This document shows, piece after piece, positions 36,274-37,860 of a DNA stretch of 64,000 nt (position 1 is its first letter; every line of letters starts with the position of its first letter). Below the pieces are notes generated by a model. That model had not been told where the DNA came from. It was given only the letters and a program-made list of their open reading frames with translations, and did not search any database. A program made the position numbers and the translations under genes. Source of the stretch: a bacterium. Lineage in GTDB: Bacteria > Acidobacteriota > Polarisedimenticolia > Polarisedimenticolales > Polarisedimenticolaceae. The DNA lies in NCBI GenBank assembly GCA_024226515.1, contig JAAELQ010000057.1, positions 12,723-76,722 of the forward strand. Direction: 5' to 3'.

Positions 36274-37860
36274 ATGTCCGGCGAGTCGGTCCTGATCGTC
36301 GAGGACGACGCAACGCTGCGACGCGGGCTGAAGGACAACTTCGAACTGCGCGGCTACGTCGTCAACCACGCCGAGGACGGCGATGCGGGCCTCGAGACGG
36401 CCCTGTCCGTCAAGCCCGACCTGATCGTGCTGGACATCATGCTCCCGGGGCTGAACGGTTTCGAGATCTGTCGCCGCATCCGCGAGGCCGAGCTGGACAT
36501 GCCGATCATCATGCTGACGGCCAAGGGTCAAGAAGAGGACATCGTGCGCGGCCTGAACCTCGGCGCCGACGACTACATGACGAAGCCGTTCAGCGTCCAG
36601 GAGCTGCTGGCCCGCGCGGCCGCGTTCCTGCGGCGACGCAAGGCGTCTGCGCCGCAGGAGTTCGCGTTCGGCGATTGCCGGCTGGATCTGCGCTCGCACC
36701 GGCTGTTCCGTGACGGCACCGAGGTCGCCCTGTCGCCCAAGGAGTTCCGGCTGCTGGAGCTGTTCGTGCAGCGCGCGGGACGCGCCCTTACGCGTGACGA
36801 GATCATGCGTTGCGTCTGGGGCAGCGACGTGATGGTCACCTCGCGCAGCGTCGACCGTTGCGTCACCACGCTGAGAAGCAAGATCGAGCCCGACGCGCGC
36901 CGGCCGATGTACGTGCAGACGATTCGTGACGTGGGTTACCGCTTCGAGCTCGCGGAGTCGGAGGCGGGGCAAGAGGCGTCTCCGGGCCCGTCGGCGGGGC
37001 AGGCGGGGCCGCTCGCGGTCGGTACGCGTCTCGGCCCCTACGCGATCCACTCGTTGCTCGGCAGCGGCGGCATGGGCGAGGTCTACCGCGCGCGCGACGA
37101 GCGGCTCGAACGCGACGTGGCGATCAAGGTCCTGCCGCACCACCTGGCGCAGAACGCGAACGCGCTGACCCGTTTCAAGCGCGAGACGAAGGCGATCGCC
37201 GCGCTGTCGCACCGGACGATCCTGTCGATCTACGACGTCGGCACGGACCGCGACCGGACGTACGCCGTGATGGAGCTGCTCGAGGGGCAGACGCTGCAGG
37301 AGCTGCTGCAGCACGGCACCATCGAGTGGCGCCAGGCGGTCCGCATCGCGATCGCGATCGCCGAGGGGCTGTCGGCGGCGCACGCCAAGGAGATCGTGCA
37401 CCGCGACATCAAGCCGTCGAACATCTTCCTGACCAGCGACACGGCCGTGAAGATCCTGGACTTCGGCCTGGCGCGCGTCGAGGAGGACGCCGTCGCGTCG
37501 TCCACCCCGGACGCCTCCACCGTCAGCCTGCGCACCGATCCGGGGTCCATGCTGGGGACGGTCGGCTACATGTCTCCGGAACAGATCCGCGGCCAGGCCA
37601 CGGACGAGCGCAGCGACCTGTTCTCCCTGGGCTGCGTGATCTACGAGATGCTCGCCGGCGCGGGACCCTTCGCGCGCGCGACCTCGGCGGACACCCTGGC
37701 CGCCGCGCTGAAGGAAGAGCCGGACCTGTCACGCCTTCCCGACGCCGTACCGGCCGACCTACGGTCCATCGTGCGCAAGAGCCTGCAGGCCGACCCCGAG
37801 CGCCGTTACCGCGCTGCGCGCGATCTGGCGTTCGCCCTCGAGGGGGTCGACCTGACCTGA
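36274..37860 (+). CDS. Hybrid signalling protein: receiver (REC) + OmpR-type winged-helix DNA-binding domain + Hanks-type Ser/Thr protein kinase
   Basis: The ATG directly follows the kinase-gene TAG (TAGATG). REC (aa 5-118) has D11 D12, D54, T82 and K104. The wHTH (aa about 132-225) reads LSPKEFRLLELFV...YVQTIRDVGYRF. The kinase core (aa about 256-519) has LGSGGMGEVY, VAIKVL, HRDIKPSNIFL, DFGLA and GYMSPEQ. Confidence 0.9.
   Translation: MSGESVLIVEDDATLRRGLKDNFELRGYVVNHAEDGDAGLETALSVKPDLIVLDIMLPGLNGFEICRRIREAELDMPIIMLTAKGQEEDIVRGLNLGADDYMTKPFSVQELLARAAAFLRRRKASAPQEFAFGDCRLDLRSHRLFRDGTEVALSPKEFRLLELFVQRAGRALTRDEIMRCVWGSDVMVTSRSVDRCVTTLRSKIEPDARRPMYVQTIRDVGYRFELAESEAGQEASPGPSAGQAGPLAVGTRLGPYAIHSLLGSGGMGEVYRARDERLERDVAIKVLPHHLAQNANALTRFKRETKAIAALSHRTILSIYDVGTDRDRTYAVMELLEGQTLQELLQHGTIEWRQAVRIAIAIAEGLSAAHAKEIVHRDIKPSNIFLTSDTAVKILDFGLARVEEDAVASSTPDASTVSLRTDPGSMLGTVGYMSPEQIRGQATDERSDLFSLGCVIYEMLAGAGPFARATSADTLAAALKEEPDLSRLPDAVPADLRSIVRKSLQADPERRYRAARDLAFALEGVDLT

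Follow-up and report, generated by a model that had tools for sequence, protein, structure and literature searches.

Can one bacterial polypeptide accept a phosphoryl group on aspartate from a histidine kinase, bind DNA and phosphorylate proteins on serine or threonine? This question is raised by a single gene in a 64,000-nucleotide stretch of DNA (hereafter the window, always meaning the whole stretch: positions 12,723 to 76,722, forward strand, of contig JAAELQ010000057.1, assembly GCA_024226515.1, from an uncultured, soil/sediment-type member of the Polarisedimenticolaceae, Acidobacteriota). A preliminary description, made without database searches, had read the gene as a fusion of a receiver domain (REC), an OmpR-type winged-helix DNA-binding domain (winged helix-turn-helix, wHTH) and a complete Hanks-type Ser/Thr kinase. 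To our knowledge, every known case of crosstalk linking two-component systems with eukaryote-like Ser/Thr kinases involves separate proteins, as when PrkC or PknB acts on WalR, and the logic of such crosstalk is debated because Ser/Thr kinases have many substrates.

One reading frame with three predicted domains

The gene (gene 3 in Table 1), whose product is identical to NCBI entry MCP3978515.1 (annotated 'MAG: protein kinase [bacterium]', MAG standing for metagenome-assembled genome, on a contig of 92.7 kb), opens with an ATG and runs for 528 codons with zero internal stops. Profile searches supported each of the three domains, all with Pfam scores well over the gathering thresholds, and together with the uninterrupted open reading frame (ORF) they bore out the proposal of a single 528-aa polypeptide. 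A stop codon or a frameshift in the linker between the wHTH and the kinase, either of which would split the fusion into two genes, was also looked for, and neither was found: the ORF was intact, and the GC content at third codon positions (GC3) stayed at 0.85-1.00 in frame throughout, linker included, indicating by its continuity that the fusion gene carries no frameshift signature. An AlphaFold2 model computed with the family alignment as input had a mean predicted local distance difference test score (pLDDT) of 84 and three confidently folded domains, with disorder confined to residues 228-244 of the linker (pLDDT <50) and to the activation loop (398-424). Across the family the linker measured 27-42 aa, anchor residues included; long, disordered and variable, it behaves as expected for a tether. 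No solved chain covered both halves of the protein in a structure search (best query-normalised TM-score 0.47).

The residues on which the preliminary description relied were all recovered in the translation. In the receiver these were D11/D12, D54, T82 and K104, which together with Y101 form an active site that was invariant in 39/39 members of the family alignment (39 full-length sequences, of which the 34 with at least 55% identity are called active below). Two further receiver residues, T103 and E110, are homologous to T101 and E108 of WalR, the peptide around the threonine reading DDYMTKPF in the fusion and DDYVTKPF in WalR; in the family alignment T103 was at least 90% conserved and E110 invariant. 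The wHTH carries the expected wing, TIRDVGYRF, and its recognition-helix residues, V188 to K203, were largely invariant across the family. The REC-wHTH half of the model superposed on 6lgq_D with a TM-score of 0.93, and the first 228 aa matched the PhoB and MtrA models at 1e-61 to 2e-65. On these grounds the N-terminal half is assigned as a genuine regulator of the OmpR/PhoB family; since it scored under every NCBIfam equivalog cut-off (PhoB 220.1 vs 296.2; MtrA 207.9 vs 300; OmpR 190.6 vs 331), the fusion is orthologous to none of the named regulators.

In the C-terminal half the kinase motifs were likewise found (GSGGMGEVY at 263-271, VAIK with K285, HRDIKPSN at 376-383, DFG at 396-398 and SPE at 434-436), and the alpha-C Glu (E304), D448 and R511 were intact as well; the protein is an RD kinase. 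Its closest known kinase by sequence was Mycobacterium tuberculosis PknB (E=6e-53), and the domain superposed on the PknB structure 6b2p with a TM-score of 0.90 and a root-mean-square deviation of 1.7 A, the bilobal fold being confident outside the activation loop. The nearest unfused relatives of the kinase domain were Acidobacteriota proteins joining a Ser/Thr kinase (STK) to TPR repeats (~58-60% identity). The activation segment comprises 41 aa with 10 Ser/Thr in the window protein (36-43 residues with 6-12 Ser/Thr across the active members), and T421, the equivalent of PknB T171, was Thr in 33/34 active members. The PknB structures matched included L33D/E and D76A mutants; positions L33 and D76 we take to be the N-lobe back-to-back dimer interface of that kinase. 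Their equivalents in the fusion, L278 and D321, were invariant in 34/34 active members, and the equivalent of PknB R10 was Arg in 27/34. Against the PASTA-kinase equivalog NF033483 (cut-off 450) the protein scored 296.1 bits over positions 9-265 of 563 in the model, and the fusion protein has neither a transmembrane segment nor PASTA repeats, ending at the kinase domain. Judged by these features, the C-terminal half is a genuine Hanks kinase core and not a PASTA kinase.

Conservation of the fusion and exchange of its third domain

About 40 more full-length clusters (90% clustering; sources NCBI, ENA, JGI and Logan) shared the three Pfam domains, at 55-76% identity and with lengths of 518-540 aa, and one of these relatives sits on a contig of 12.18 Mb. 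The Gly-loop, VAIK Lys, alpha-C Glu, HRDxKxxN, DFG, APE, D448 and R511 were kept in 34/39 aligned members, and the retention of all catalytic motifs in 34/34, despite kinase-domain identities to the window protein that drop to 49% among the motif-intact members, argues that catalysis is under purifying selection. When 1.84 billion representatives were taken at 50% clustering, the active triple fusion made up a single cluster. Not one of the remaining top 146 representatives showed the order REC-wHTH-kinase, though other combinations were present among them (wHTH-kinase, kinase-REC, REC-kinase-kinase and kinase-wHTH). The sole full-span match (L080) among the listed results of a contig profile search, which were dominated by generic regulators of the OmpR family, proved to be a kinase-REC-HD protein, a different architecture, and was rejected. 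The preliminary description had allowed that the architecture might turn out to be common and already characterised; what emerged was a narrow family for which no describing paper was found, the combination of REC, Trans_reg_C and Pkinase being undescribed in the literature searched, which left out two census reviews of regulator outputs. From the sequences compared, the triple architecture is judged to be real, conserved and phylogenetically narrow.

The N-terminal scaffold is found far more widely on its own. A search with aa 1-228 recovered >100 clusters of standalone regulators of 226-245 aa, 66-81% identical, which came, where the source was named, from Acidobacteriota, 'Deltaproteobacteria', Phycisphaerales and Blastopirellula. 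Three standalone-regulator loci (L090, L091 and L092) carried the same module as the window, composed of a TPR/DUF3108 protein, a histidine kinase (HK) and a response regulator (RR), with no kinase gene downstream. With the two-domain regulator widespread in the same module, the kinase is a lineage-specific addition and the fusion a derived form.

The same scaffold also carries other third domains. Proteins with REC, Trans_reg_C and a SpoIIE/PP2C phosphatase domain (P0057, P0058, P0063, P0066, P0072, P0082, P0091 and P0096) matched aa 1-228 of the fusion, as far as the wing, with 65-71% identity and shared the module at L084/L085 (the L084 gene lies at 8001-9518); to judge from the alignments, they are a natural kinase-to-phosphatase domain swap on one scaffold. 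A clade of REC-wHTH-pseudokinases (P0052-P0056), 40-45% identical to the fusion, had a perfect receiver site and had lost the Gly-loop, the VAIK Lys, the HRD Asp and the DFG Asp, as well as the equivalents of PknB L33, D76 and R10, while keeping the kinase fold and C-lobe residues (an APE-like motif, D448, and R511 in 4/5). The member at L086 (8001-9482) adjoins an orthologous HK and has kept a degenerate form of the promoter box described below. Such REC-wHTH-pseudokinases were unmentioned in a 2025 review of bacterial pseudokinases. Two REC-kinase proteins of 417-420 aa (P0050 and P0051) had cleanly lost the wHTH, and their kinase domains nested inside a clade of triple-fusion kinases, indicating that tethering to DNA is not needed for the kinase to be retained. 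In neighbour-joining trees of the REC-wHTH scaffold the standalone, kinase and PP2C forms were interleaved; the fused kinases formed three pure clades and one singleton, and monophyly of all of them was recovered in just 5/50 bootstraps.

The three-gene module and its candidate operator

The fusion gene is the last of three, following the genes for a secreted TPR/DUF3108 protein and a membrane HK (Table 1). The product of gene 1, which has an N-terminal signal-like hydrophobic segment, was 49% identical to its ortholog at L001 and 34% to that at L084. An alternative upstream ORF (32795..34318, +, 507 aa) was Arg-rich, had no Pfam match and a GC3 of 0.44, and was discarded as a wrong-frame artefact. 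In the HK, a periplasmic domain of ~350 aa, for which no Pfam match was obtained, lies between transmembrane helices at ~19-37 and ~389-407. The fusion ATG directly abuts the HK stop codon (TAG then ATG), just as the preliminary description had it, and the upstream gene does encode HisKA and HATPase_c domains. Another ORF (37326..39929) overlaps the fusion gene; only the 3' part (38559..39929) seems to be a real gene, for a secreted protein of 456 aa that has no Pfam match.

At every locus examined the orthologous HK gene abutted the regulator gene, and full-length orthologs were identical to the window HK at 64% of positions at L001 (kinase type), 49% at L084 (PP2C type) and 40% at L086 (pseudokinase type). 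The module order recurred, with HK and regulator genes abutting or overlapping, at L001, L088, L087 and L089, and was evident from Pfam content in L088, L090, L091 and L092. At L001, whose fusion is a 72% relative, two tandem DUF3108 paralogs precede the HK and the kinase fusion, and at L087 the first gene encodes a TPR-Tricorn protein. The two TPR/DUF3108 copies at L001 (2863-4326 and 4539-5984) are 86% identical, and each has its own direct-repeat box and promoter. At L089 (5765-7004) two short ORFs (213 and 212 aa) stand in place of a single HK ORF of ~650 aa, and the promoter box is kept; a frameshift, a pseudogene or a truncated kinase without its sensor may account for them. Gene content identifies the TPR/DUF3108-HK-RR arrangement as a widespread, uncharacterised module, predicted to be sensory, whose named members belong mainly to the Acidobacteriota and Planctomycetota.

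Upstream of gene 1 lies a box of two 7-bp direct repeats, preceded by a short conserved element and followed by a -10-like hexamer (Table 1). The box occurred once in the window, and at <=2 mismatches none arose in 100 shuffles. It was found at the equivalent position in 11/11 module promoters examined (the window, two at L001, and L087, L088, L089, L084, L086, L090, L091 and L092), reading CGTCACAaaacGGTCACA at the PP2C locus L084 and CGTCATAcaacCGTAATA at the pseudokinase locus L086, and box and hexamer lay 69-98 bp upstream of the first module gene. In the gap-free core of alignment A2 (eight loci), GT.A in both half-sites and TA...T of the hexamer were invariant and the flanks diverged; the upstream GGACA-N6-GGAy element was also seen at three standalone-regulator loci. 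A consensus scan of 32600-38600 revealed no sigma-70 -35/-10 pair. Two terminator-like hairpins in the same interval were no more than expected by chance and were not retained. In PhoB-type class II activation, two 7-bp direct repeats replace the -35 element, and by analogy the geometry of the box is what an autoregulator of the OmpR/PhoB family would use, with the regulator itself as the predicted ligand; the almost invariant recognition helix of the scaffold fits the conserved box.

A second box-like site, TGTTACATTGCTGTGACA (62167-62184), whose half-sites (TGTnACA) are palindromic and match both strands (0.04 expected by chance), lies in the 146 bp that separate two divergent genes, one GHL10 glycosyl-hydrolase-like (59292..62099, -) and the other a VWA gene (62246..63370, +). 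Either the fusion protein or the regulator encoded from 63397 could bind there. The latter had been put forward as a paralog of the fusion: the gene does exist, encodes REC and wHTH and is cut by the window end, but close paralogy did not hold, the proteins being just 43-49% identical, a generic OmpR-type level. An exact 50-mer scan of metagenome contigs gave no match that would extend this gene beyond the window end.

Elsewhere in the window, whose lineage has a GC content of ~68-70%, Rfam and tRNA scans detected no rRNA or tRNA genes. The phosphoenolpyruvate carboxykinase (27277..29076, -) had its nearest named relatives, 74-79% identical, almost entirely within Candidatus Polarisedimenticolia, Thermoanaerobaculia, Vicinamibacterales and other Acidobacteriota, which fits an uncultured lineage of that phylum. 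The PP2C_2-like protein encoded at 39939..40706 has metal-binding-type motifs (NEDD, DGVSQGG, SDGVY and DDTS) and was considered as a cognate phosphatase; it was not conserved beside the fusion in other loci and was not counted in the system. Many CHAT, caspase-like, Sel1, Tricorn-like, and STK-TPR or STK-WD40 genes surrounded the loci of relatives.

Table 1. Coordinates of the fusion gene, its domains, the module, the candidate operator and other genes in the window (position 1 is the first nucleotide of the window)
Feature	Position	Strand	Remarks
Gene 3, REC-wHTH-Hanks kinase fusion	36274..37860	+	528 aa + stop; cytoplasmic, without transmembrane segment
Receiver domain, aa 6-114	36289..36615	+	Pfam Response_reg E=1.4e-31
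OmpR/PhoB-type winged-helix DNA-binding domain, aa 148-224	36715..36945	+	Pfam Trans_reg_C E=3.1e-24, full model 1-77 of 77
Flexible linker, aa 225-255	36946..37038	+	disordered in model; length and sequence variable in family
Hanks-type Ser/Thr kinase domain, aa 256-514	37039..37815	+	Pfam Pkinase E=4.7e-53
Gene 1, secreted TPR + DUF3108 protein, 485 aa	32847..34304	+	Pfam DUF3108 E=4.8e-10 and TPR; GC3 0.87
Gene 2, membrane sensor histidine kinase, 652 aa	34315..36273	+	HisKA 420-485; HATPase_c 533-643; H-box SHELKTPL
Upstream element GGACAATAAGAGGAT (GGACA-N6-GGAy; GGAT in window)	32758..32772	+	just 5' of box; aligned in 8 loci
7-bp direct-repeat box GGTAACA-AGGG-GGTAACA, GGTAACAAGGGGGTAACA	32778..32795	+	11-bp periodicity; 69 bp 5' of gene 1; putative regulator site
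-10-like hexamer TAACGT (TAnnnT)	32805..32810	+	9 bp 3' of box
GTP-dependent phosphoenolpyruvate carboxykinase	27277..29076	-	
1149-aa protein with proprotein-convertase P-domain	29289-32738	+	directly upstream of module promoter
Cupin_2 protein, 119 aa	37906-38265	-	opposite strand, right after fusion gene
PP2C_2-like protein, 255 aa	39939..40706	+	borderline Pfam 24.5 bits vs cut-off 24; 2 kb downstream of fusion
466-aa protein	40728-42128	-	near-threshold collagen-repeat match (27.1 bits vs 27.2)
REC + partial Trans_reg_C regulator	63397-64000	+	cut by window end; preceded by VWA gene, not HK

Proposed mechanism, competing readings and known systems

The reading that we favour, with a probability of roughly one half, is that a single His-Asp signal would bring about dimerisation on the box, and with it both transcription and activation of the Ser/Thr kinase. 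The HK, perhaps together with the TPR/DUF3108 protein, would sense a cue in the periplasm, and it would phosphorylate D54; receiver dimerization would then be driven through the alpha4-beta5-alpha5 face, as in other OmpR/PhoB regulators, and the wHTH dimer would bind GGTAACA-N4-GGTAACA in place of a -35 element and activate its own operon. The same dimerization would bring the two tethered kinase domains close enough to pair back-to-back through their N-lobes and to phosphorylate each other on the Thr-rich activation loop, after which the active kinase would act possibly on the regulator's own T103 and/or on other proteins. In PknB, back-to-back dimerization allosterically promotes autophosphorylation (PMC6333020). 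PPM/PP2C phosphatases are activated by regulated dimerization, and receiver domains are among their N-terminal regulators (PMC12143880), so that a kinase or a PP2C domain would be interchangeable on one dimerising scaffold.

Several points weigh against this proposal. The predicted TM-score (pTM) of the AlphaFold2 model, 0.53, says nothing on relative domain placement and leaves the mutual arrangement of the domains undefined. OmpR-type wHTH dimers sit head-to-tail on DNA, and a linker of ~30 residues may or may not permit a symmetric N-lobe pairing. At the position of PknB R10 the window protein has Pro (P255), as do 6/34 active members. The pseudokinase clade shows that the third domain can persist without catalysis, no substrate-like gene (FHA, STAS) was conserved in the fusion modules examined, and a factor other than the regulator might conceivably occupy the box. 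A more specific form of the proposal we hold possible without expecting it: a phospho-Asp-gated, promoter-tethered Ser/Thr kinase that would dimerise on the box, activate its own operon and phosphorylate itself and/or the transcription machinery or other proteins, built on a plug-in scaffold with exchangeable PP2C and pseudokinase domains.

A different role for the kinase would be that of a built-in second input or feedback, phosphorylating the protein's own T103, in cis or within the dimer, and thereby potentiating or latching DNA binding, a proposal that we regard as rather unlikely. It would be a fused version of the crosstalk from PrkC or PknB to WalR. PrkC phosphorylates WalR solely on Thr101, in the peptide DDYVTKPF at the alpha4-beta5-alpha5 interface, and WalR activity rises as a result (PMC4478028); in Staphylococcus aureus, phosphorylated T101 strengthens the WalR dimer, bonding E108 across it (bioRxiv 10.1101/2025.07.12.664526). 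The fusion has the homologous DDYMT103KPF....E110, and the lack of an external substrate gene conserved in the module fits a substrate within the protein. A phosphosite borne by the shared scaffold would also suit the occurrence of kinase and phosphatase variants upon it, the PP2C forms reversing the modification by removing a phospho-Thr set by another kinase. However, a Thr in (V/M)TKPF with a downstream Glu is common in the OmpR family and so unspecific, which leaves T103 as a conjectural target and its presence as no evidence for the role; eight other Bacillus subtilis regulators have Ser/Thr at the position of WalR T101, and PrkC phosphorylates them far less (PMC4478028). T103 feedback is, besides, compatible with activation of the kinase by dimerisation and does not exclude it.

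It is quite unlikely, in our estimate, that the main task of the DNA-tethered kinase is to phosphorylate RNA polymerase, sigma factors, neighbouring regulators or nucleoid proteins locally at promoters. The box overlaps the -35 position, which would place the bound protein beside RNA polymerase, and DNA binding activates the B. subtilis Hanks kinase YabT, which acts on DNA-associated proteins (PMC6333020), but P0050 and P0051 keep the kinase without a wHTH. Improbable too is a third domain that is mainly non-catalytic, serving as a dimerization, scaffold or nucleotide-sensing module with incidental kinase activity. P0052-P0056 would speak for it, having lost catalytic residues and yet kept the receiver, the kinase fold, the HK neighbour and a degenerate box, whereas the 34/34 members of the window protein's own clade that keep all motifs are hard to explain without selection for phosphotransfer, and the activation-loop Thr is conserved there along with many Ser/Thr of the loop. 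Finally, an artefact, in which a sequencing or assembly error or a chimeric contig merged a regulator gene with a kinase gene, has a negligible chance, even though the window comes from a metagenome-assembled genome and standalone two-domain regulators are common, because the same uninterrupted architecture recurs in ~40 independent clusters from four data sources, one of them on the 12.18-Mb contig, codon-position GC is continuous through the linker, and the standalone-regulator loci have no downstream kinase gene that could have been merged.

If the promoter-tethered form of the proposal is true, the fusion would be the first bacterial polypeptide known to couple His-Asp, Ser/Thr and transcriptional signalling by direct physical linkage. 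A natural fusion of this sort would also support regulated dimerization as a general means of equipping signalling scaffolds with exchangeable enzymatic outputs. The fusion offers a tractable natural system, with a defined HK partner, a candidate DNA site, sister forms whose third domain is a phosphatase, is a dead kinase or is missing, and clear points of mutation for coupling studies (D54, K285, T103 and L278/D321).

The preliminary description had contrasted the fusion with two-component outputs that are either DNA-binding or enzymatic, a division that is too strong: regulators of the NtrC family, which join an ATPase to a helix-turn-helix (HTH) domain, and Vibrio cholerae VieA combine an enzyme with an HTH, and in NtrC-type regulators the receiver drives both domains. 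With the OmpR/PhoB regulators (PhoB, MtrA, RegX3, RpaA and WalR) the fusion shares REC and Trans_reg_C, an adjacent HK and a pho-box-like direct repeat near a -10-like hexamer, but it adds a 300-aa kinase domain and sits in a TPR/DUF3108 module. With PknB, PrkC and Stk1 acting on WalR it shares a PknB-like kinase and the DDYxTKPF...E phosphosite context, whereas its kinase lacks transmembrane segment and PASTA repeats, stands in the same chain as the regulator and would take its input from an HK and not from an extracellular ligand; in this respect the fusion may be seen as a 'Rosetta stone' for the pairing of PknB/PrkC-type kinases with OmpR-family regulators. YabT likewise combines a Hanks kinase with a DNA-binding element, and since contact with DNA stimulates its trans-autophosphorylation (PMC6333020) it offers a precedent for DNA-scaffolded activation, but it uses a short basic juxtamembrane motif without sequence specificity, sits anchored in the membrane and lacks a receiver, whereas the fusion has a wHTH of predicted sequence specificity and predicted control through Asp. 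In PP2C response regulators of the RssB/RsbY type a receiver likewise controls an enzyme of Ser/Thr phosphorylation, without a DNA-binding domain between the two, and the enzyme of the fusion is a kinase. Set beside these systems, the fusion is, on its domain content, a variation on known kinds, the OmpR regulator and the Hanks kinase, and not a new kind of system.

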